Shown here: piece by piece, positions 2,140-12,001 of the stretch | Position numbering within the stretch: position 1 is the stretch's first letter | How the letters are laid out: each line of letters begins with the position of its first letter | Virus record (IMG/VR): IMGVR_UViG_2872158770_000003 | DNA length: 37,298 nucleotides | From: a virus | Lineage: Duplodnaviria; Heunggongvirae; Uroviricota; Caudoviricetes | Reading direction: 5' to 3' (one strand) | Notes under the pieces: model-generated | Databases searched by the model: none | Seen by the model: only the letters and a program-made list of their open reading frames with translations | What the model was told of the DNA's origin: nothing | Program-made: the position numbers and the translations under genes

Positions 2140-2958
2140 ATGTGTCAGGTATTTGGTGTATCCAGGAGCGGTTATTACAACTGGGTACAGCATGAACCCT
2201 CAGACAGAAAACAAAGTGATGAGCGGCTAAAACTGGAGATTAAGGTGGCACATATCCGCACTCGCGAAACATATGGAACCCGGCGGCTCCAGACGGAGCT
2301 GGCAGAGAATGGCATCATCGTTGGTCGTGACCGACTGGCACGTCTTCGTAAGGAGCTAAGGCTACACTGTAAGCAGAAACGCAAGTTCAGAGCGACTACG
2401 AACTCGAACCACAATCTGCCAGTTGCGCCAAATCTGCTGAACCAGACGTTCGCTCCTACAGCACCAAATCAGGTCTGGGTGGCGGACCTGACGTATGTTG
2501 CCACACAGGAGGGATGGTTGTACCTCGCTGGCATCAAAGATGTTTATACGTGCGAAATTGTCGGCTACGCCATGGGAGAGCGCATGACAAAAGAGCTGAC
2601 AGGTAAAGCCCTGTTTATGGCGCTCAGGAGCCAGCGCCCACCTGCCGGGCTAATCCACCACTCTGATCGAGGTTCACAGTACTGCGCATACGATTACCGG
2701 GTCATACAGGAGCAGTCTGGTCTGAAAACATCAATGTCGCGTAAAGGTAACTGTTACGACAACGCTCCGATGGAAAGCTTCTGGGGAACGCTGAAAAATG
2801 AGAGCCTGAGCCACTATCGTTTTAATAACCGGGATGAAGCCATCTCAGTAATACGGGAATACATTGAGATTTTCTACAATCGTCAGCGTCGTCACTCTCG
2901 TCTGGGGAATATCTCCCCGGCAGCCTTCAGGGAAAAATATCATCAGATGGCTGCTTAA
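2140..2958 (+). CDS. IS600 OrfB (DDE transposase catalytic domain, 272 aa)
   Basis: Translation contains IS3-family integrase-core motifs (WVADLTYV..., HSDRGSQY..., NAPMESFWGTLK); normally expressed as OrfAB fusion. Confidence 0.9.
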   Translation: MCQVFGVSRSGYYNWVQHEPSDRKQSDERLKLEIKVAHIRTRETYGTRRLQTELAENGIIVGRDRLARLRKELRLHCKQKRKFRATTNSNHNLPVAPNLLNQTFAPTAPNQVWVADLTYVATQEGWLYLAGIKDVYTCEIVGYAMGERMTKELTGKALFMALRSQRPPAGLIHHSDRGSQYCAYDYRVIQEQSGLKTSMSRKGNCYDNAPMESFWGTLKNESLSHYRFNNRDEAISVIREYIEIFYNRQRRHSRLGNISPAAFREKYHQMAA

Positions 2959-3001
2959 AAAAAGAACAAATGGTAGTGTCCGCTATTGCCAGTACACCTC
3001 A

Positions 3002-3200
3002 TCCATCACCGAAAAAAATTGGCTTTTACACCATTGGCGATAAAAGCATTTACCTGTATGACCTACGCCGCATGGATGAAATCATGGAGGCTCTTGATAA
3101 TCGTTCGTCGATGGATTGGTGTGTTGCTGTTCATGATATGAATGCAGGGTTTGATGAAAAGATTTTGTTCCCCTCATCAGTTGAAAGCACTGCGGGTTAA
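3002..3200 (+). pseudogene. 3' fragment of a prophage gene truncated by IS600
   Basis: Reading frame enters from inside IS600 and ends ...DEKILFPSSVESTAG; no start codon outside the IS. Confidence 0.35.
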
Positions 3201-3210
3201 GGAGTAACAC

Positions 3211-3378
3211 ATGACCACTATTACCAAAGAACGTATTGAATTGTTCATTAAAAACCCGCTTGAAAACGGGCTTACCCGTGGTGAACAAATGGAACTGGCA
3301 CGGATTGCGCTGGCATCGCTGGAAGCAGAGCCGGTTGTGTTCTGGTTTGAAAAATATCAAGAAGGGGCTACGGCATGA
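3211..3378 (+). CDS. hypothetical protein (55 aa)
   Basis: ATG at 3211 preceded by AAGGAG (3199-3204); stop overlaps next start (ATGA); shares ALASLEAEP / ALVSLAAEP motif with the following ORF. Confidence 0.45.
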
Positions 3379-3719
3379 CGACTTTTACCAGAGAGCAGTT
3401 AATAGCTCACGCAGAGGAGACTATTGAAGCACAGAGACTGTGCATACCGGGCACAATCGACCATGACATCATCCGCACATATAAGATGGATATTGCTGTT
3501 CTGGAAATCGCACTGGTATCGCTGGCAGCAGAGCCAGCCGGTAAATTGCATGAATACAAACCAGTGGGATATCAGCGTCTGGTCGATGAGTTAACCATGC
3601 TGGTAAAGCAGTTAACCTGGCAACTGAGAAAAGCGAAGCCAGACTGCAAATTACCGGATAAGGCGATGAGTTATCTGGAGCGGAACGGACTGATAAGCGT
3701 GGAGGATATTTTACGATGA
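3375..3719 (+). CDS. hypothetical protein (114 aa)
   Basis: ORF translationally coupled to neighbours on both sides; lies in the prophage region upstream of hok. Confidence 0.45.
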
Positions 3720-3799
3720 CCTGGCCTGAAGCATTAACAACGGTAGGAATTGCGATGGCGGTGGCGCTGGTGGTGTATTCGATTTGCCGCTGGGGATAA
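3716..3799 (+). CDS. possible small hydrophobic peptide (27 aa)
   Basis: ATG overlaps stop of preceding ORF (ATGA); translation [27 protein letters not shown] is membrane-like; too short for the ORF track. Confidence 0.25.
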
Positions 3800-4010
3800 A
3801 AACGGTTTGCGGGAAAAGGAGAGTTAAGTAGAATTGCAGCGGGTGCTTGAGGCTATCTGTCTCAGGCATGAACACCAAAAGGCAGATAGAGAAAAGCCCC
3901 AGTTAACATTACGCGTCCGGCAAGACGCTTAACATTAATCTGAGGCTCAATCTATGAACGGCAAATCTAGGTTAGCCTCTTACGTGCCGAAAGGCAAGGA
4001 GAAGCAGGCT

Positions 4011-4166
4011 ATGAAGCAGCAAAAGGCGATGTTAATCGCCCTGATCGTCATCTGTTTAACCGTCATAGTGACGGCACTGGTAACGAGGAAAGACCTCTGC
4101 GAGGTACGAATTCGAACCGGCCAGACGGAGGTCGCTGTCTTCACAGCTTACGAACCTGAGGAGTAA
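4011..4166 (+). CDS. hokD: Hok/Gef-family type I toxin (51 aa), HokD/RelF-like
   Basis: Translation MKQQKAMLIALIVICLTVIVTALVTRKDLCEVRIRTGQTEVAVFTAYEPEE has the Hok signature (TM helix then C-x-[VI]-R and EVAAF-like motif); followed by a strong terminator. Confidence 0.75.
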   Translation: MKQQKAMLIALIVICLTVIVTALVTRKDLCEVRIRTGQTEVAVFTAYEPEE

Positions 4167-4236
4167 GAGACCAGGCGGGGGAGAAATCCCTCGCCACCTC
4201 TGATGGGTCAGGCATCCTCAATGCACCCACACTTAA

Positions 4237-4260
4237 CCCGCTTCGGCGGGTTTTTGTTTT
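4237..4260 (+). terminator. rho-independent terminator downstream of hok
   Basis: Hairpin CCCGC-TTCG-GCGGG followed by TTTTTGTTTTTATTTT. Confidence 0.7.
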
Positions 4261-4383
4261 TATTTTCAACGCGTTTGAAGTTTTAGATGGTGCCGGAATA
4301 GAATCAAAAATACTTAAGTAGCGCGCAGGGAGAAGAGGGATGGACCCCGAACAGGGGAGTGCTATTTATCTGGAAGGATTCTG

Positions 4384-4647
4384 TTGATGAAAATCGAAGA
4401 ATTACGTGAAATTTTTAGTGAAGATGGCCTCTATACTGTGCGCGTTGAGAATGGCGCTATTGTCAGCCACTGCCGTATTAAATGTTTACAGTCTCAACAA
4501 AGGAAGAGTGGAGCTGCGTTAATTCATTTTGTGGATGGGCTTGTGACGGATGGTTTTATTTCGCGTGCAAATGAATTTGTCACATCGTTGCCGTCTCTGA
4601 AAGAAGCTGGGATTAAGGCTGGTTTTTCTGCTTTTGAAGATGAGTGA
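4384..4647 (+). CDS. hypothetical protein (about 86 aa; ATG at 4387)
   Basis: ORF in the position of the small gene that follows hokD in K-12 Qin-type prophages (recalled gene order); identity not verifiable. Confidence 0.4.
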   Translation: MMKIEELREIFSEDGLYTVRVENGAIVSHCRIKCLQSQQRKSGAALIHFVDGLVTDGFISRANEFVTSLPSLKEAGIKAGFSAFEDE

Positions 4648-4713
4648 ATTCATCTACAATTCAGCGCAGGGCTGAACCCCTGTTGAGTAACACTGTGCCA
4701 CCGGAGAAAGCCG

Positions 4714-4992
4714 ATGGCGCAAAATTCCAGACTACACAATTCTGATAATTCAGCCGTCTTTGCCAGCAGGCACGGGCGGCGCTCTCACGCATTTAAATCT
4801 GATTGGTACCAGCATCCCCCATGCACTGAAGAACAGGCCGAATGGCTCATTCAGTGTTACCGCAGGCGCGGATGCGAGGTTAAAAAAGCCCTTAGCCTCG
4901 ACTACCGTCACTGGATAATCTCCGTCAGGCTCCCTTACTCCGAACGGCCAACGCGTCCGTCCCGCACATTCCAGCAACGGATCTGGAGGTAA
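4714..4992 (+). CDS. hypothetical protein (92 aa), possibly a split-off N-terminal part of the next gene
   Basis: ORF ends 1 nt before the DUF968-like ORF begins in another frame. Confidence 0.3.
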   Translation: MAQNSRLHNSDNSAVFASRHGRRSHAFKSDWYQHPPCTEEQAEWLIQCYRRRGCEVKKALSLDYRHWIISVRLPYSERPTRPSRTFQQRIWR

Positions 4993-4993
4993 T

Positions 4994-6052
4994 GTGCGGG
5001 TATTACTTCGACCTGTTCTGGTACCGGAACTCGGTCTGGTTATCGTTAAGCCAGGCCGTGAATCAATGTCAGCATTCCATAACGGCAGAATACTGGTGGA
5101 GCCGGAACCAAAAAGCATGCGTAATCTGCCGTCCGGGGTCGTTCCTGCCGCTCGCCAGCCGCTGGTGGAAGACAAAACATTGCTGCCGTTTTTCAGTAAC
5201 GCACGGGTGATTCGTGCTGCTGGTGGTGCTGGTGCATTGTCTGACTGGCTGTTGCGCCATATTAAATCCTGCCAGTGGCCACACGGCGATTATCATCACA
5301 GCGAAACCGTCATTCACCGTTATGGTACCGGCGCAATGGTGTTGTGCTGGCACTGCGACAACCAGCTGCGTGACCAGACATCCGAATCACTCGAGCAACT
5401 TGCTCATCAAAACCTGTCAGCATGGATGATTGACGTCATCGGTCACGCAATAAGCGGTACGCAGGAGCGTGAATTATCTCTGGCTGAATTATCCTGGTGG
5501 GCGGTCCGCAATCAGGTGGCGGACGCGCTACCGGAAGCGGTATTACGTCGTTCGCTGGGGTTGCGTGCGGAAAAAATTCGCTCTGTGTACAGTGAAAGCG
5601 ACATCATACCGGGAGAGCAGACAGCCACCAGCATACTGAAGCAGCGCACAAAAAATATTGCGTTACTGCCTCACGTCCACCAGCAACAGAACCCACCACA
5701 GGAAAAGACGGTGGTCAGCATTGCCGTTGATCCGGAGTCACCGGCTCAGTATCTCCAGCGCCAGAAATCACAACGGGAAGAGATGCCTGTATACACGCGC
5801 TGGGTAAAAACGCAGAAATGCATGACGTGTGGCAATCAGGCAGATGATCCGCATCACATCATTGGTCATGGACTGGGAGGGATGGGAACAAAGGCTGATG
5901 ATTTGTTTGTTATTCCGTTATGCCGTAAATGCCGTAACGAACTACATGCCGGAGTAAAAGATTTTGAAGAGAAACACGGCAGTCAGCTGTTGTTGCTGAT
6001 TCGTTTTTTAATGCACGCGAGAAATTCGGGTGTTCTGAAGTGGAAAGCATAA
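4994..6052 (+). CDS. YdfU-like (DUF968) prophage protein with C-terminal HNH-like zinc motif (352 aa)
   Basis: Length and position (upstream of Q) match YdfU-type proteins; C-terminus CMTCGNQADDPHHIIGHG...CRKCRNELH resembles an HNH/zinc finger. Confidence 0.6.
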   Translation: MRVLLRPVLVPELGLVIVKPGRESMSAFHNGRILVEPEPKSMRNLPSGVVPAARQPLVEDKTLLPFFSNARVIRAAGGAGALSDWLLRHIKSCQWPHGDYHHSETVIHRYGTGAMVLCWHCDNQLRDQTSESLEQLAHQNLSAWMIDVIGHAISGTQERELSLAELSWWAVRNQVADALPEAVLRRSLGLRAEKIRSVYSESDIIPGEQTATSILKQRTKNIALLPHVHQQQNPPQEKTVVSIAVDPESPAQYLQRQKSQREEMPVYTRWVKTQKCMTCGNQADDPHHIIGHGLGGMGTKADDLFVIPLCRKCRNELHAGVKDFEEKHGSQLLLLIRFLMHARNSGVLKWKA

Positions 6053-6433
6053 ATGACCGAGCGCATAGAATTTGTTTTACCTTACCCGCCGACGGTGAAC
6101 ACTTACTGGCGTCGTCGTGGCAGCACATATTTTGTATCAAAAGCCGGGGAGCGTTATCGCCGGGCAGTGGCGCTTATTGTTCGCCAGCAGCGGCTGAAAT
6201 TAAGCCTGTCCGGAAGGTTGGCAATAAAAATTATTGCAGAACCACCGGATAAGCGCCGCCGTGACCTGGACAATATTCTGAAAGCGCCGCTGGATGCGCT
6301 GACGCATGCGGGGTTGCTAATGGACGATGAGCAGTTTGATGAAATCAATATCGTTCGTGCTCAGCCAGTATCTGGTGGACGTCTGGGGGTGAAGATTTAT
6401 CCCATAATGCTTGAAGGGCAGGTCAAAAAATGA
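6053..6433 (+). CDS. rusA: RusA-family Holliday junction resolvase (126 aa)
   Basis: N-terminal LPYPPTVNTYWRRRG and central PDKRRRDLDNILKAPLDALTHAGLLMDDEQ match the RusA catalytic motif pattern. Confidence 0.8.
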   Translation: MTERIEFVLPYPPTVNTYWRRRGSTYFVSKAGERYRRAVALIVRQQRLKLSLSGRLAIKIIAEPPDKRRRDLDNILKAPLDALTHAGLLMDDEQFDEINIVRAQPVSGGRLGVKIYPIMLEGQVKK

Positions 6434-7251
6434 AACTGGAAGATTTACCGAAATACTACTCCCCAAAATCCCCCGGCCTGACTGATGCATCGGCCTCAAC
6501 GTCGAAAGATGCGCTGAGTATCACTGATGTGATGGCCGCGCAGGGCATGACACAGAATCGGGCTGAGATGGGGGTTTCTGCGTTCCTTGGGAAAATGGGC
6601 ATTAGTATGAATGACAGAGAGCGGGCAACAGAATTGCTGACAGAATATGCACTCAGTCGGTGTGATCGCGTGGCGGCGTTAAGAAAACTCCCGGCAGAAA
6701 TAAAACCGGCAGTGATGCGTATTATGGCTTCGTATGCGTTTGAAGATTATGCCCGTAGCGCGGCGAGCAAAAAACAGTGCCCCTGCTGTCACGGAAAAAA
6801 ATTTATTGAAAGCGAGGTTTTTACAAACAAGATCCAGTATCCGGATGGTAAGCCGCCGGTATGGGCAAAGTGTACGAAAGGTGTGTATCCGTCTTACTGG
6901 GAAGAATGGAAAAAAGTCAGGGAGGTGGTAAAAGTTGCCTGTCCGGAGTGTGGCGGAAAGGGTGAGGTTTCCACCGCCTGTAAGGATTGCCGTGGGCGTG
7001 GTGTCGCCATTCATCGTGAAGAGTCGGTAAAACGTGGTATGCCTGTTATCAGAGACTGCCAGCGTTGTGGTGGTCGTGGCTATGAAAGACTACCATCAAC
7101 GGAGGCATTTAATGCTATATGCGAGGTGACAAACCAGATAACACGCGCGTCATGGGAAAAAACAGTTAAGAAATTTTATGATGCGCTGGTGACCCGGTTT
7201 GATATTGAAGAAGCATGGGCTGAGCGGCAGTTAAAAAAGGTAACTAGGTAA
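6430..7251 (+). CDS. late-gene antitermination protein Q (273 aa)
   Basis: Overlaps rusA stop (ATGA); several CxxC zinc-finger pairs; sits directly upstream of a PR'-like promoter and short-transcript terminator. Confidence 0.7.
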   Translation: MKLEDLPKYYSPKSPGLTDASASTSKDALSITDVMAAQGMTQNRAEMGVSAFLGKMGISMNDRERATELLTEYALSRCDRVAALRKLPAEIKPAVMRIMASYAFEDYARSAASKKQCPCCHGKKFIESEVFTNKIQYPDGKPPVWAKCTKGVYPSYWEEWKKVREVVKVACPECGGKGEVSTACKDCRGRGVAIHREESVKRGMPVIRDCQRCGGRGYERLPSTEAFNAICEVTNQITRASWEKTVKKFYDALVTRFDIEEAWAERQLKKVTR

Positions 7252-7256
7252 CAAGG

Positions 7257-7284
7257 TTGATTTTTCCGGAATCTGTGGTAAATT
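7257..7284 (+). promoter_or_regulatory. candidate late promoter PR' (-35 TTGATT, 16-nt spacer, -10 TAAATT)
   Basis: Hexamers read directly after the Q stop; TAAATT is the lambda PR' -10 hexamer (recalled). Confidence 0.4.
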
Positions 7285-7333
7285 CGTCATAACGATGGGC
7301 GTTTTATGCCTGACGTTAGAAGAGTTTCTACAA

Positions 7334-7356
7334 CCCGCCGCCGAGCGGGTTTTTTA
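7334..7356 (+). terminator. tR'-like rho-independent terminator (end of short 6S-like late leader)
   Basis: Hairpin CCCGC-CGCCGA-GCGGG followed by TTTTTT, about 50 nt downstream of the candidate PR'. Confidence 0.5.
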
Positions 7357-7475
7357 TGACTGAAATCGCGTCAGTACAGTAAACGCGCTGGTGGCGGTGA
7401 ATACCTGTCTTTCAGCTTGCTGGCTTTTTCGACAAGAGTTATTGGTGTGTCACGTTAACCGGAAAAGGAAAAGAC

Positions 7476-7673
7476 ATGCTAAAACAGCAGGATATGACAG
7501 AAACCGCCAGAGTGGTGTTTAATGAATTAAGCGTTACCGAACCGGCGACAGTCGGGGAGATAGCGCAGAATACTTACCTTTCACGCGAACGCTGCCAGTT
7601 AATACTGACCCAGCTGGTTATGGCGGGTCTGGCAGACTATCAGTTCGGTTGTTACAGACGCCTTCCGCAGTGA
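7476..7673 (+). CDS. small winged-helix DNA-binding protein (65 aa), PapI/FaeA-like
   Basis: RBS AAGGAA upstream; helix-turn-helix-like segment TVGEIAQNTYLSRERCQLILTQLVMAGLA; sits directly upstream of a DNA methyltransferase. Confidence 0.4.
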   Translation: MLKQQDMTETARVVFNELSVTEPATVGEIAQNTYLSRERCQLILTQLVMAGLADYQFGCYRRLPQ

Positions 7674-7823
7674 AGGCTTTTTTATTTGTGGTAAATGGGC
7701 GGCTGGTGGGTGTTAGGGGCACCCACCAGCCATCTGCTCATGCGTTGGGTTCACAAGCAAACCTCAGGCCCACTGCTTTGCGCAAAAGCAGAATGAGCCT
7801 ATCAGAGACAGGCTTAATGATCC

Positions 7824-8882
7824 ATGCTTAATACTGTAAAAATATCCAGTTGTGAGTTAATCAACGCCGACTGCCTGGAATTTATCCGGTCGTTACCCGA
7901 AAATTCTGTTGACCTGATAGTCACGGACCCGCCGTACTTTAAAGTGAAGCCTGAGGGCTGGGATAACCAGTGGAAGGGCGACGATGATTACCTGAAGTGG
8001 CTGGACCAGTGTCTGGCGCAGTTCTGGCGGGTGCTGAAACCTGCCGGAAGTCTTTACCTGTTCTGTGGTCATCGCCTGGCATCTGATATCGAAATCATGA
8101 TGCGTGAACGCTTCAGTGTGCTGAACCATATTATCTGGGCGAAGCCGTCCGGACGCTGGAACGGATGCAACAAGGAAAGCCTGCGGGCGTATTTCCCCGC
8201 CACAGAGCGCATTCTGTTCGCGGAACATTATCAGGGGCCGTATCGTCCGAAAGATGCCGGGTATGCGGCGAAGGGCAGTGCACTGAAACAGCATGTGATG
8301 GCCCCGCTGATTTCTTACTTTCGTGATGCGCGAGCTGCCCTGGGGATAACGGCAAAACAGATTGCAGATGCCACAGGAAAGAAAAACATGGTGTCGCACT
8401 GGTTCAGTGCCGGTCAGTGGCAGTTGCCGAATGAAAGCGATTATCTGAAATTACAGGCGCTGTTTGCCCGGGTGGCAGAAGAGAAGCATCGGCGTGGTGA
8501 ACTGGAAAAGCTCCACCACCAGCTGGTGGATACGTATACCTCACTGAACCGGCAGTATGCGGAGCTGCTGAGTGAATATAAACATCTGCGGCGGTATTTT
8601 GGCGTGACGGTGCAGGTGCCGTATACCGATGTGTGGACGCATAAACCGGTGCAGTTCTATCCCGGGAAACATCCGTGCGAAAAACCGGCAGAAATGCTGC
8701 AGCAGATAATCAGCGCTAGCAGTCGTCCGGGTGACCTGATTGCAGATTTTTTCATGGGGTTGGGTTCGACAGTGAAAGCGGCACTGGCGCTCGGGCGTCG
8801 TGCAATTGGCGTTGAGCTGGAGACTGAACGTTTTGAGCAGACGGTTCGGGAAGTACAGGATTTAGTCAGCCAGAACGGATGA
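7824..8882 (+). CDS. DNA methyltransferase (N6-adenine/N4-cytosine, beta-class order) (352 aa)
   Basis: Catalytic DPPY motif near N-terminus (LIVTDPPYF) and SAM-binding FxGxGS motif near C-terminus (DFFMGLGST), i.e. motif IV before motif I. Confidence 0.8.
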   Translation: MLNTVKISSCELINADCLEFIRSLPENSVDLIVTDPPYFKVKPEGWDNQWKGDDDYLKWLDQCLAQFWRVLKPAGSLYLFCGHRLASDIEIMMRERFSVLNHIIWAKPSGRWNGCNKESLRAYFPATERILFAEHYQGPYRPKDAGYAAKGSALKQHVMAPLISYFRDARAALGITAKQIADATGKKNMVSHWFSAGQWQLPNESDYLKLQALFARVAEEKHRRGELEKLHHQLVDTYTSLNRQYAELLSEYKHLRRYFGVTVQVPYTDVWTHKPVQFYPGKHPCEKPAEMLQQIISASSRPGDLIADFFMGLGSTVKAALALGRRAIGVELETERFEQTVREVQDLVSQNG

Positions 8883-8922
8883 TATTGAAGAATTAATTAC
8901 GCGTCGTTATTATGCGGCTCCC

Positions 8923-8998
8923 GGCCCTTTAGCTCAGTGGTGAGAGCGAGCGACTCATAATCGCCAGGTCGCTGGTTCAAATCCAGCAAGGGCCACCA
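8923..8998 (+). tRNA. ileZ: tRNA-Ile2 (anticodon CAT, lysidine-type)
   Basis: Cloverleaf folded by hand: acceptor GGCCCTT/AAGGGCC, anticodon loop CTCATAA, T-loop TTCAAAT, encoded CCA; close to E. coli tRNA-Ile2 (recalled). Confidence 0.85.
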
Positions 8999-9005
8999 TC
9001 ACATA

Positions 9006-9082
9006 CCGCCATTAGCTCATCAGGAAAGAGCGCCAGCCTTCGAAGCTGGCTGCGCGGGGTTCAAGTCCCCGATGGCGGTCCA
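9006..9082 (+). tRNA. tRNA-Arg (anticodon TCG)
   Basis: Acceptor CCGCCAT/ATGGCGG, anticodon stem CCAGC/GCTGG with loop CTTCGAA, T-arm CGGGG-TTCAAGT-CCCCG, encoded CCA. Confidence 0.85.
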
Positions 9083-9095
9083 TTATCTGCATCAT

Positions 9096-9172
9096 GCGTT
9101 GTTAGCTCAGCCGGACAGAGCAATTGCCTTCTAAGCAATCGGTCACTGGTTCGAATCCAGTACAACGCGCCA
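9096..9172 (+). tRNA. tRNA-Arg (anticodon TCT, reads AGA/AGG)
   Basis: Acceptor GCGTTGT/ACAACGC, anticodon stem ATTGC/GCAAT with loop CTTCTAA, T-arm CACTGG-TTCGAAT-CCAGT, encoded CCA. Confidence 0.85.
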
Positions 9173-9217: not shown

Positions 9218-9435
9218 TCTCACAATTCAGACGGTTGACAGTTGTCTGTTTTGCGGGGAGTTTGTTAAAAGAAACTGGCATGGTGAATCCCCCTGTGCGG
9301 AGGGGCAATCAGCGAGTAGGTATATGGGATAATCGCGGATTCAGGTGCTGGTACTGAATTCACCGGGAGGCACCCGGCATCATGCAATGGCACATAGCGC
9401 CACTCTCCAGCCCTCTCCGGAGGGGCTTTTCTGTG
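9218..9435 (+). repeat. module A of a diverged tandem duplication (TTGACA hexamer, conserved hairpins, terminal terminator)
   Basis: Shares collinear blocks with module B: CTCACAATTCAG, TTGACAGTTG, TTTGTTAAAA, GCATGGTGAATCCCCCTG, GCGGAGGGGC, CACCGGGAGGCACCCGGCA, CCCCTCTCCGGAGGGG + T-run. Confidence 0.6.
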
Positions 9436-9685
9436 CCGGATACATCACAGTTTCTGGAACCTTAGGTACTACAGTATCAGTCAGGGTGCTATATTTTCAG
9501 ATGTGATGAAAGCCTGTCAGCAGGCAGGGCGTATCGGAAATGACCCAGTAGAGAAAACGTTGACTCAGATACCGGTGCTGAGTTACCGGGAAACCGGCAT
9601 CACATGACCGCTATCCTTCCAGGCCCATCCGCTCCGGTGGGCCTTTTTACTGCAGAAAACAGGTTCCCCGTTAAATGCTATGTTG

Positions 9686-9919
9686 CTCACAATTCAGTAA
9701 GTTGACAGTTGCCTGTCAGACTGGGCATTTGTTAAAAAAATTTCGCATGGTGAATCCCCCTGAGCGGAGGGGCGACTGGTGACGGTATAATCTCTGATTA
9801 TCAAAACGAGAATGACGCGGGTTTAGTGGCACCGGGCTGAACTCACCGGGAGGCACCCGGCACCATGTGCATGATGATACAGATACGCGGCTTTAGCCCC
9901 TCTCCGGAGGGGTTTTCTT
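9686..9919 (+). repeat. module B of the diverged tandem duplication; contains a perfect TATAAT at 9786-9791
   Basis: Same ordered blocks as module A about 467 bp downstream; preceded by terminator hairpin GGCCCA-TCCGCTCCGG-TGGGCC + TTTTT (9622-9649). Confidence 0.6.
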
Positions 9920-10147
9920 GTGGGCAAAAAAAGCCCGCGCTGGGAGACGCGGGCGGCAAGGAATAAACAATAAAACGTGAAGTAATATTTCAGCTGGCGA
10001 ATAATACCCCATAGTAATCACTCTGCGCAACTGCGCGGTCTTTTTCGAATTGCGGGCTGTCGTCTCTCTTCTGCCATTGTCCTGTAACTTCCGGACTTCA
10101 GCCCGCTCCTTATTTTACTCACAATATTATCCCGGCCGGGAGGATTC

Positions 10148-12001
10148 ATGGCATTTAAACACTATGACGTGGTCAGGGCGGCATCGCCGTCAGACCTTGC
10201 GAAACGACTGACACAAAAACTGAAGGAGGGCTGGCAGCCGTTTGGTAGTCCGGTGGCCATAACCCCTTATACCCTGATGCAGGCGATTGCAGCAGAAGGT
10301 GATGTGGTCGTCAGTGGTGCAACTGAGCCGGAGTGGTACTACGTCATCGTACTGGCCGGGCAATCCAATGCCATGGCTTACGGTGAAGGTCTTCCGCTTC
10401 CGGATTCATACGATGCGCCCCATCCGCGCATTAAGCAACTGGCCCGTCGTAACACAGTGACTCCCGGTGGTGAAGTATGCGTATTTAACGACATCATTCC
10501 TGCTGACCATTGTCTGCATGATGTTCAGGATATGAGTACGATTAACCATCCCCGGGCTGACCTGAGCAAAGGGCAGTACGGCTGTGTCGGACAGGGCTTA
10601 CATATTGCCAAAAAACTGCTTCCGTATATCCCTAATAATGCGGGGATCCTGCTGGTACCATGCTGTTGTGGTGGTTCGGCATTCACCCAGGGCACGGAGG
10701 GGACATTCAGCGAGTCCACGGGGGCCAGTCAGGATTCGGCTCGCTGGGGAGTGGGTAAGCCGTTATATCAGGATCTGCTTTTCCGCACGAAGGCAGCATT
10801 GCAGAAAAACCCGAAAAACGTTTTGCTGGCGATATGCTGGATGCAGGGGGAATTCGATATGACGAATGCCAGTTACGCCCAGCAGCCAGCAGCATTTCTT
10901 GCAATGGTACAGCAGTTCCGTGCTGACCTTGCCGGGCTGGCGGCGCAGTGTCACGGTGGAAGTCCGGCATCAGTCCCCTGGATTTGTGGCGACACGACAT
11001 ACGCGTGGAAACAAGAACACGGTACGCAATATGAAGTGGTATATGGTGCATATAAAGGTAAAGAATCCCAGCAGATTTATTTTGTTCCCTTTATGACCGA
11101 TGGTAGCGGAGTTAATACACCGACAAACAACCCGTCAGAAGATCCTGATATTGCCGGGTCTGGTTATTACGGTTCGGCATCCCGAACGAACAAAAACTGG
11201 GTATCATCAAATCGCCCGACGCATTTCAGCTCATGGGCGCGTCGTGGCATTATTCCCGATCGTATGGCAACTGCTATTCTGAACGTAGCCGGTCGCACCT
11301 TAGCCTTCATTAGTGGTAAGGCACCGGAAATCAAACCCTCGCCCGGCGGCGACACGCCATCGGGGCCGTCTGAAGATGCATCCATACGCACAATCTCCCT
11401 GTTGCCGACAGCCGGAGACGCTGCTGCGCAGGGCTGGAGCATTAAGAATGGCGGAGTTCAGTTGTCAGATGGTGTATTTAAGATCACCAAGCAGAGCAAT
11501 AAAGCCTGGTCCCTGACGCGCCCGGTGGATGACGCAGTCTCCCTGCTGACACGGGGTGGCAGACTGAGCTGTAAGTTTCGACTGTCAGGCGCACTGACCA
11601 ACAACCAGTTCGGTCTGGGAATTTATCTGTATACCGATGTAGCGTTACCTGACGTCGTGGCGATGACCGGGACTGGTAACCCGTTCCTGATGTCGTTCTT
11701 CACCCAGACCACAGACGGCAAACTGAATCTGATGCATCACAAGAAAGCAGGAAACACAAAGTTGGGCGAGTTCGGGAATTACAGTAACGACTGGCTGACG
11801 CTGGAGCTGGTGTTCACCGCCGGCAGTGCCACGGTTACTCCGAAACTGAATGGAGTGGCTGGCCCGGCATTCCAGGTCATAAAAGACAGTCTGACACTGG
11901 GGCTGAATGCGCTGACGCTGACGGATATTACCAAAAATGCAGCGTATGGCGTTGAGATAGAAAGTCTGGTGCTGGAGATAAATGCACCGGCATCATCATA
12001 A
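10148..12001 (+). CDS. nanS-p: prophage NanS-p-type sialate O-acetylesterase (617 aa)
   Basis: RBS GGGAGGA upstream; SGNH-hydrolase-like block VIVLAGQSNAMAYGEG; size and position (after phage tRNAs, before the holin) match Stx-phage nanS-p (recalled). Confidence 0.7.
   Translation: MAFKHYDVVRAASPSDLAKRLTQKLKEGWQPFGSPVAITPYTLMQAIAAEGDVVVSGATEPEWYYVIVLAGQSNAMAYGEGLPLPDSYDAPHPRIKQLARRNTVTPGGEVCVFNDIIPADHCLHDVQDMSTINHPRADLSKGQYGCVGQGLHIAKKLLPYIPNNAGILLVPCCCGGSAFTQGTEGTFSESTGASQDSARWGVGKPLYQDLLFRTKAALQKNPKNVLLAICWMQGEFDMTNASYAQQPAAFLAMVQQFRADLAGLAAQCHGGSPASVPWICGDTTYAWKQEHGTQYEVVYGAYKGKESQQIYFVPFMTDGSGVNTPTNNPSEDPDIAGSGYYGSASRTNKNWVSSNRPTHFSSWARRGIIPDRMATAILNVAGRTLAFISGKAPEIKPSPGGDTPSGPSEDASIRTISLLPTAGDAAAQGWSIKNGGVQLSDGVFKITKQSNKAWSLTRPVDDAVSLLTRGGRLSCKFRLSGALTNNQFGLGIYLYTDVALPDVVAMTGTGNPFLMSFFTQTTDGKLNLMHHKKAGNTKLGEFGNYSNDWLTLELVFTAGSATVTPKLNGVAGPAFQVIKDSLTLGLNALTLTDITKNAAYGVEIESLVLEINAPASS

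Follow-up and report, generated by a model that had tools for sequence, protein, structure and literature searches.

What does a gene for a small protein with a helix-turn-helix look do directly in front of a DNA methyltransferase (MTase) gene, and what lies between the two? The question is raised by a 37,298-nt stretch of DNA from a tailed virus (Caudoviricetes; IMG/VR record IMGVR_UViG_2872158770_000003), which as a whole is called the window here. Its plus strand carries an open reading frame (ORF) for a 65-aa protein (7476-7673, MLKQQDMTET...RRLPQ) and, after a gap of 150 bp, one for a 352-aa beta-class MTase (7824-8882). A preliminary description of this DNA placed both ORFs correctly, took the gap as mere spacer, and proposed that the small protein is reminiscent of PapI/FaeA-type regulators and that the pair forms an epigenetic or anti-restriction module expressed late. 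No part of the locus is better conserved than this gap or more closely linked to the MTase. What is new here is the architecture around the enzyme: a conserved structured RNA that is exclusive to the MTase and framed by terminators, together with a winged-helix (wH) companion that is widespread but optional. On balance, we lean towards reading the locus as a late anti-restriction cassette similar to Mom of phage Mu, under multilayer control and composed of the wH gene, an RNA element of ~130 nt and, as its enzyme, an orthologue of the MTase M.EcoGII, and not as a PapI-type epigenetic switch.

A structured element in front of an M.EcoGII orthologue

The MTase matches the Pfam family PF01555 (N6_N4_Mtase) over residues 29-340 with 144.1 bits (cut-off 26.7, E=7.9e-42). 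Its motifs stand in beta-class order, with DPPY (motif IV, residues 35-38, nt 7926-7937) followed by the target recognition domain and then by FFMGLGST (motif I, which includes FMGLGS; residues 309-316, nt 8748-8771), as expected from the DPPY near the N-terminus and the FxGxGS near the C-terminus that had been noticed earlier. The protein also matches PHROG DNA-methyltransferase families, and its solved relatives in the PDB are beta-class adenine MTases, to which it aligns in two blocks, one N-terminal and one C-terminal. PADLOC returned generic MTase models only and no defence-system partner, and there is no endonuclease ORF between the upstream antiterminator gene Q and the downstream tRNA genes, so the enzyme was rightly called an orphan beta-class MTase.

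The closest characterised relative is M.EcoGII, which is carried by a prophage of E. coli O104:H4 and is described in PMC5778455, PMC7544214 and PMC11551740. At least 324 of 349 positions are identical (93%), a lower bound because the M.EcoGII sequence was taken as printed in the supplement of PMC11551740, whose text has errors of optical character recognition. The homologue in phage 1720a-02, which PMC5778455 describes as very similar to M.EcoGII, is 94.6% identical to the window MTase. According to the same paper, M.EcoGII modifies adenine whatever the surrounding sequence; its gene is not expressed in the lysogen, and the enzyme is deleterious once expressed and active when cloned alone. 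The window thus shares with M.EcoGII and M.EcoGI of the E. coli O104:H4 C227-11 prophage an identity of at least 93%, the beta-class motif order and the setting in a prophage late region; M.EcoGII differs in being 349 aa long instead of 352, and the window copy has the substitution S313L. Judged by its sequence, the window MTase is an orthologue of a characterised non-specific adenine MTase; the enzyme itself is already known and is ordinary as an annotation. A term search of the three M.EcoGII papers finds no mention of the upstream wH gene or of the RNA element.

The element lies within the gap, at 7693-7823, and in an alignment of the regions upstream of MTase genes it is more conserved than the small ORF. 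Diverged copies with compensatory changes are present in N15, phiKO2, PY54, VHML, Vibrio ST2-1pr and Aeromonas phiARM81ld. MAFFT and RNAalifold, run on the raw alignment, recovered only a partial structure, and a hand-built structure with a covariance model was needed. The model was made from 42 sequences and a hand-drawn structure in which P1 closes a junction of P2 and P3 and is followed by P4. It matches the window at 7681-7826 with 139 bits (E=2e-29), placing the helices of the three-way junction at 7696-7700/7768-7772 (P1), 7701-7712/7720-7731 (P2) and 7733-7741/7753-7761 (P3), and the P4 hairpin at 7773-7779/7785-7791. Downstream of P4 is an invariant box, TGAGCCTATCA (7794-7804), which reads TGaTAGGCT on the minus strand and on the plus strand can pair with GGCCCA as an extension of P4.

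Compensatory change is found throughout the structure, with 26 of 33 pairs altered on both sides. Of the cells, 80.7% are paired, against 26-52% in slid controls, and none of 500 shuffles reaches the observed values, although such numbers are inflated by the fitting of the alignment to the model. P2 has been swapped wholesale between lineages, as GGCTGGTGGGTG/CACCCACCAGCC, GACTGTAAAG/CTTTACAGTC, GCGGGACGAG/CTCATCCCGC and GCTACAGTATG/CATACTGTAGC, and such replacement is hard to explain except by structure.

The element is tied to the MTase gene. The covariance model matches 69 of 96 sources, once each; all matches face the same way with respect to the MTase (the plus strand of the locus), and every match ends at the MTase start or at an ORF similar to Com of phage Mu. 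A scan of IMG/VR with a degenerate pattern gave 120 loci, 90 of which hold a true element (91 instances); the other 30 were rejected as chance matches, having neither nhmmer support nor an MTase. Each of the 91 confirmed instances on viral contigs is followed by an MTase homologue, at 54-100% identity. Because this includes loci without the small ORF, the element belongs to the MTase gene and not to the small ORF. Immediately upstream of it, a terminator scan finds an intrinsic terminator, GCCTTCCGCAGTGAAGGC then TTTTTTATTT (7660-7685, plus strand), which overlaps the stop codon of the 65-aa ORF. Every relative has a hairpin or terminator in this place, whether or not it carries the small ORF.

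The element seems to be new. Rfam 15 has no plus-strand match to the window at the element with E<=1, and on the minus strand only P26, whose 24 bits fall short of the gathering score of 36; in nine diverse loci there is no match at the element with E<=0.5. The element's sequence was not found in print in the literature searched.

Two other explanations of the conserved gap were rejected. A conserved leader peptide was considered because the window has a 33-codon ORF at 7695-7796 (MGGWWVLGAPTSH...), which starts at the element's conserved ATG and stops at the TGA of the invariant box, as it does in SfV. It may be a short upstream ORF in these two, but relatives stop after 7-13 codons, and the compensatory changes in P2 also count against a conserved peptide. 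A sense-strand intrinsic terminator or attenuator inside the element was rejected for want of a U-run after P4.

The element also helps to place a gene start in a relative. In phage N15, the GenBank start of gp52 (gene 52; position 2735 of locus L012) is probably 78 codons too far downstream, because a start at 2501 is indicated both by where tblastn aligns the window MTase and by where the RNA element ends.

Sense leader or antisense RNA

The element could act as part of the MTase messenger RNA or as a separate RNA from the other strand. The preferred reading is a cis-acting leader, whose most stable fold would pair GGUUCACAAGC (7749-7759) with the region upstream of the ATG (7811-7822), and for which the three-way junction would be the alternative, open state. 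The sense RNA of the window has a minimum free energy of -63.4 kcal/mol (z=-5.3), and its optimum is not the three-way junction but this alternative fold. It consists of a helix P1' (7695-7701/7735-7741), in which AUGGGCG pairs with UGCUCAU and extends P2 to a hairpin of ~20 bp, and an anti-start-site helix (7749-7759/7811-7822), in which GGGUUCACAAGC base-pairs with GCUUAAUGAUCC and the AUG is enclosed in the pairing. Upstream of the MTase ATG, a canonical Shine-Dalgarno sequence is missing at the usual distance.

Both helices of the alternative fold are better paired across relatives on the plus strand, where they carry G.U pairs: 94% of the P1' cells pair on plus against 80% on minus, and 89% of the anti-start-site cells against 82%. 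A further count across the family has the two helices 94% and 85% paired, with changes that agree with wobble pairing on plus. In Morganella, Providencia and three more lineages, the anti-start-site strand and the start region have changed together so as to stay complementary, and the cognate pairing beats 98-100% of non-cognate ones. In addition, the spacing between the element and the start codon that follows is fixed, as a cis-acting leader predicts.

Several observations weigh against the sense leader. The anti-start-site pairing is absent in the Hafnia, N15-like and VHML lineages, so the element was rejected as a universal start-site occluder. The three-way junction itself pairs better on the minus strand. 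In all but one of 49 unique sequences P3 is more stable on the minus strand (48 for minus, none for plus), by a mean of 4.6 kcal/mol; the RNAalifold consensus energy is -24 to -26 kcal/mol on minus against -13 to -15 on plus; and 97.5% of the P3 cells pair on minus against 75% on plus. The P4 cells follow with 95% against 90%, P1 and P2 are neutral between the strands, and RNAalifold recovers the full three-way junction with P4 on the minus strand only. The helices of the three-way junction, P3 above all, fit an antisense RNA better than a sense leader.

These observations lead to a second reading, which we regard as less likely than not. The element would be the gene for an antisense small RNA (sRNA) of ~100 nt, starting at P4 from an extended -10 TGaTAGGCT (complement of 7794-7804), running through the junction and ending near a U-run (complement of ~7693). 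Such an sRNA would be constitutive in the lysogen, where it would base-pair with the leader of the MTase and silence late transcripts that leak, and would be outrun by massive Q-dependent transcription on induction; the wH protein could repress its promoter. Besides the energies and paired cells of P3 and P4, this would account for the otherwise unexplained invariant box. In 37 diverse sequences read on the minus strand, the T, A and T of the -10 hexamer are kept in 97%, 100% and 100%, and the upstream TG in 89%, giving a box of the extended -10 type (TGnTAGGCT) ~7 nt before P4. A conserved A-run upstream of P1 also becomes, on the minus strand, a U-run after P1. However, this U-run, at 2-5 nt, would make a poor intrinsic terminator, there is no obvious -35 element, and the predicted transcript would miss the ribosome-binding region. 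P1', the anti-start-site helix and the fixed distance to the start codon all speak for the plus strand, and the antisense transcript is hypothetical whereas the sense strand is certainly transcribed within the MTase messenger RNA.

An antisense RNA at this place would have company among phages. If the minus-strand reading is right, the candidate would resemble lambda OOP/paQ, P22 sar and P1/P7 c4 as a short, structured, constitutive RNA that opposes a harmful phage transcript, and in neutralising leaky transcripts it would act as a type I antitoxin does, or as lambda OOP/paQ or P22 sar do. It differs from these RNAs in having no sequence or Rfam relation to them, in that its target would be the MTase leader, and in being a predicted transcript. 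Because the sense transcript must exist, and because of the element's position relative to the gene, the sense leader is slightly preferred over the antisense RNA; both could hold at once.

The winged-helix companion

The small ORF is a real gene under purifying selection and not a chance ORF, since its product matches PHROG 331 (function unknown; E=1.4e-37), its dN/dS against orthologues is 0.03-0.2, and AlphaFold2 models it confidently. The model, from a 24-sequence alignment, has a pLDDT of 91.6 and the topology H1-b1-H2-H3-b2-b3, with helices at residues 4-16, 26-33 and 37-49 and strands at 24-25, 53-56 and 59-62. Foldseek gives TM-scores of 0.7-0.84 to the winged-helix domains of IclR, MarR and SelB (0.82 for IclR regulators), and the helix-turn-helix suspected earlier is thus predicted to be a winged helix. 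Other fold matches are MarR/OhrR, the N-terminal dimerisation domain of O-methyltransferases, the SECIS-RNA-binding winged helices of SelB, and Z-alpha-like domains. Against the PDB and BFVD, Foldseek finds generic winged helices, none under E=1e-3, from which no specific function can be derived; a PDB search with the single 65-aa sequence gave nothing useful.

Database names for the protein should be read with this in mind. NCBI calls it 'TrmB family' or 'DprA-like wH'. TrmB (PF01978) scores 18 bits against a cut-off of 25.6 (E=0.0026), with a weak match in 5/13 relatives, and the name 'TrmB family' seems, from these scores, to reflect generic winged-helix resemblance. DprA_WH (PF17782) scores 14.4 bits against a cut-off of 22.9 for the window protein; 5/13 relatives match it, the best at E=3.7e-6, and some database members of the family already carry this annotation. 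MarR_2 is a further winged-helix match below threshold in Pfam/NCBIfam. The 65-aa protein has no Cys4 pattern, no match to Mu Com (PF10122) and no match to HTH_3.

The proposed likeness to PapI and FaeA did not hold up. PF04703 matches neither the window protein nor any of 12 diverse relatives at E<=1 (0/13), and the best fold matches are generic; in a profile search of the PDB, the PapI homologue PefI appears among generic winged-helix matches at a sub-significant E=0.015. A PapI/FaeA-type regulator working with site-specific adenine methylation as a phase-variation-like epigenetic switch would still have in its favor that small winged-helix proteins occur in both systems, that PefI matches weakly, and that a GATC stands just before the MTase ATG in many relatives. 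But the GATC is absent in Hafnia and N15-like members, and the enzyme is 93% identical to an MTase that methylates adenine in any context (PMC5778455), so there would be no site-specific pattern to read, and a switch of the PapI/Dam kind is implausible. M.EcoGII and M.EcoGI are also silent in the lysogen (PMC5778455), and with such relatives and a gene behind two terminators, the MTase cannot plausibly maintain an epigenetic state. The switch, and with it the epigenetic half of the earlier proposal, is largely refuted and we consider it very improbable. What remains of the comparison is that PapI, FaeA and PefI, which work with Dam and Lrp, are likewise small (~70 aa) winged helices tied to adenine methylation; they differ in that the window protein has no PF04703 match and its partner MTase would be non-specific and late-lytic. 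The controller (C) proteins of restriction-modification systems are similar in being small DNA-binding proteins encoded directly upstream of a methylation or restriction gene whose expression they time, and differ in being Xre-type helix-turn-helix proteins that act on C-boxes in complete systems; here there is a winged helix and no endonuclease.

The pairing of small ORF and MTase is far beyond chance. At least 80% of window 7250-8900 is found in 2007 of 5426 complete E. coli genomes (~37%). The arrangement of small ORF, ~140-155 nt and then MTase recurs downstream of Q even at ~50% identity of the small protein, in phages such as SfV (orf47/48), mEp460, cdtI, Hafnia yong2, Morganella IME1369_02, Providencia PSTRCR_117lys, Citrobacter phiNP, Klebsiella phages, and Stx2a, Stx2c and Stx2d phages; the host genera are Escherichia, Shigella, Hafnia, Morganella, Providencia, Citrobacter and Klebsiella. 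In a survey that covered MTase contexts, the small ORF comes just after Q in all 57 phage records that have it, and the MTase adjoins in every record inspected. For a homologue of the small protein with 92% identity, the pair stays together in 10 of 10 distinct contexts with varying upstream genes, although in one of them an insertion sequence (IS) stands where the MTase would be. At L307 (~2845-4750), from an E. coli genome, the MTase that should come straight after the small ORF is replaced or interrupted by an IS whose transposase has rve domains.

The pairing was also counted from the other side, in 80 loci chosen by the MTase alone with one genome per species. The small ORF precedes the MTase in 55 of them: 32 have it together with the full spacer element, and 23, in Xenorhabdus and Photorhabdus, with a reduced one. 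A further 20 have the element without the small ORF, and 5 have neither, two of them cut by contig ends. In the Xenorhabdus and Photorhabdus loci (L065-L092) the small ORF is kept, and the reduced element, ~100 nt upstream of the MTase, is essentially GUGAAAUGG, the P2 hairpin and CAUUCGCC, without P3, P4 and the GCCCA strand of P1. Because it is kept in this reduced element, the P2 hairpin region is the best candidate for a target of the wH protein, as RNA or as DNA. Distant homologues with ~25% identity are N15 gp51, phiKO2 gp51 (a wHTH protein in RefSeq) and PY54 ORF59, which have in common with the wH protein an MTExA motif at the N-terminus and the third helix; N15 gp51 is encoded next to the same MTase. 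While the remainder of the protein diverges across the family, CQL(I/L)LTQ in the recognition helix hardly varies, which suggests that the wH target is conserved.

Against a partnership of the wH protein with the MTase stand the loci in which it is missing or misplaced. In 20 of the 80 loci the slot upstream of the element holds unrelated cargo, such as a Zn-ribbon protein or membrane-like proteins of ~220 aa, or the terminator tR' directly. In N15-like phages the annotated late promoter and terminator separate the wH homologue, which comes first, from the MTase, and the homologue is therefore not in the MTase transcript. As the slot cargo varies and the N15-like homologue is upstream of the promoter, the wH protein may be a neighbor and not a partner. 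It is also not needed for catalysis, since M.EcoGII is active when cloned alone (PMC5778455). One could then take the wH gene for independent cargo in an insertion-prone slot, with no tie to the MTase; its product might, for instance, be a transcription factor for genes of the host or for other genes of the phage. The element and MTase are complete without the small ORF in Eeyore, LLS and others, and the element also occurs without it in N15; moreover, the small ORF is flanked by its own terminators, as is typical of morons. This reading seems somewhat unlikely to us, because the association holds across three arrangements (lambdoid, Xenorhabdus/Photorhabdus and N15-like) down to ~25% identity, because the pair is intact in all ten contexts with varying upstream genes and adjoins in every inspected record, and because the near-invariant CQL(I/L)LTQ suggests a conserved target. 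The wH protein is the most frequent but a dispensable companion of the MTase.

Among the cargo proteins of the slot, Kosakonia and a related contig (L027 and L028, both at 2058-2297) encode a 79-aa Cys-rich (CxxC...CxxC), zinc-ribbon-like protein, which matches no Pfam family.

Probable late expression and a proposed post-transcriptional lock

The prophage is lambdoid and Stx-phage-like but without stx, and the window covers its late regulatory region. A NinG-like ORF (4994-6052) and a RusA-like ORF (6053-6433) are followed by the Q antiterminator (6430-7251, 273 aa; PF03589, E=1.6e-53). Q also carries DnaJ-type CXXCXGXG zinc-finger repeats (PF00684, E=6e-7, just under the cut-off). A PR'-like late promoter (7257-7296, plus strand) begins 6 nt past the Q stop codon. 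It has a -35 of TTGATT (7257-7262) and an extended -10 of TGgTAAATT (7276-7284), with 16 nt between TTGATT and TAAATT (7279-7284), a spacer that includes the TGg. At about +1 to +6 is AACGAT (7291-7296), which we take to resemble the sigma-70 pause-inducing element of lambda PR'. A consensus promoter scanner did not flag this promoter because its score is only 8/12. The terminator scan finds a tR'-like intrinsic terminator, AACCCGCCGCCGAGCGGGTT then a T-run, at 7332-7358 on the plus strand. With the promoter followed by tR' (7257-7358), a short RNA of ~65 nt similar to 6S/StxS is therefore expected in lysogens. As the pair lies downstream of Q, of a PR'-like promoter with AACGAT and of a tR' terminator, Q-dependent late expression, as proposed in the preliminary description, is the natural reading of this anatomy. 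The annotated order in N15 and phiKO2 is late promoter, terminator, element, MTase and lysis genes.

Directly downstream of the MTase, in the same late transcription unit, is a cluster of three tRNA genes (8923-9172, plus strand) of Met/Ile2 type (CAT), Arg (TCG) and Arg (TCT). ARAGORN calls the CAT tRNA Met, and it may be an Ile2-type (lysidine) tRNA; the same CAT/TCG/TCT order in related Stx phages is annotated as tRNA-Ile and two tRNA-Arg, with argN named. Between the tRNA cluster and a gene for a NanS-p-like esterase (10148-12001) are three tandem copies of an STnc100-type sRNA (9249-9438, 9477-9650 and 9716-9925), two strong and one weak in Rfam (161, 124 and 30 bits). In related Stx phages, stx2AB is among the features that lie under the match to this 3.8-kb stretch; stx genes are absent in the window.

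Put together, these parts suggest how the cassette might work. In the lysogen, transcripts from the PR'-like promoter would stop at tR', and any leakage would stop at the second terminator. Upon induction, Q-modified polymerase would pass both terminators and transcribe everything from the wH gene and the leader through the MTase and tRNA genes to the lysis genes. Adenines of the progeny DNA would then be methylated by the MTase in nearly all contexts, giving broad protection from restriction in the next host, as Mom does for Mu; the anti-restriction role proposed earlier fits what is known of M.EcoGII, the closest characterised relative, and has the support of homology. Because such an enzyme harms the host, the RNA element would additionally lock its translation. 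The wH protein may bind nucleic acid and tune this RNA lock in trans, as a functional analogue of Mu Com.

Com enters this locus in some relatives. In Mu, Com is the translational activator of mom, a toxic late modification gene. In Aeromonas phiARM81ld (L013, 2329-2541) and Vibrio ST2-1pr (L179, 1328-1440), the element is followed by a Com-family ORF and then by the MTase, whose start this ORF overlaps; the two ORFs score 27.9 and 26.2 bits against PF10122, whose gathering score is 22.9. In Mu-like prophages of Haemophilus and Neisseria, com is paired with non-specific adenine MTases (PMC3299994). These ORFs and this precedent indicate that the MTase family is under Com-type control in some lineages, which supports post-transcriptional locking as the theme of the locus and suggests, by analogy, a similar trans-acting role for the wH protein.

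The parallel with com-mom goes some way. Both are late, and in both a broad, host-toxic anti-restriction adenine modification would be preceded by a small upstream gene and a structured messenger RNA at the start site. The window differs in that its small protein is a winged helix without a Cys4 zinc finger, its enzyme is an S-adenosylmethionine-dependent MTase and not Mom, there is no indication here of Dam, OxyR or C protein control, and its RNA element (~130 nt, with a three-way junction) is much larger than the hairpin targeted by Com. Closer in enzyme activity are Hin1523, Nma1821 and Hia5 (PMC3299994), non-specific adenine MTases that sit in the mom position with a small regulator upstream and are silent in the laboratory. 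Hin1523, Hia5 and Nme1821 differ in being ~280 aa long and in being aligned in PMC3299994 with Dam and M1.DpnII, not with the beta class; the regulator of the Mu-like prophages with com and an MTase is Com, and these phages are transposable and Mu-like, not lambdoid or N15-like.

One feature of the window's own enzyme may count against a working cassette in this particular phage. The preliminary description would have taken disabling substitutions as a refutation, and in part this applies, since one rare substitution, S313L, was found in motif I (nt 8760-8762): of 173 homologues, 171 have Ser, and Leu occurs in 2, the window and an identical viral contig (L094). The copy may be weakened, in SAM binding for instance, or hypomorphic.

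Extended to the family, the proposal is that the element belongs to an undescribed class of regulatory RNA, either a two-state leader or a cis-encoded antisense RNA, which together with a wH or Com protein forms a post-transcriptional lock on a toxic, non-specific DNA/RNA methylase of the M.EcoGII type, and that this lock spans lambdoid, N15-like and VHML-like phages of Enterobacterales, Vibrio and Aeromonas. We put this joint claim forward tentatively, at a little under even confidence.

M.EcoGII is in use as a reagent for DNA adenine methylation in long-read chromatin footprinting and as a starting point for RNA m6A tools (PMC10705563 and PMC11551740). Of the enzyme's natural biology, PMC5778455 reports only its silence in the lysogen and its harm on expression. 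The loci compared here show the enzyme family accompanied by a structured RNA of its own, which is strongly conserved and a candidate RNA family absent from Rfam 15, and often also with a wH protein or, in other lineages, a Com-type activator. This gives a testable model for how temperate phages may keep a genome-wide methylase off until lysis, and it would extend the com-mom paradigm of Mu to lambdoid and linear-plasmid phages, including Stx-converting phages.

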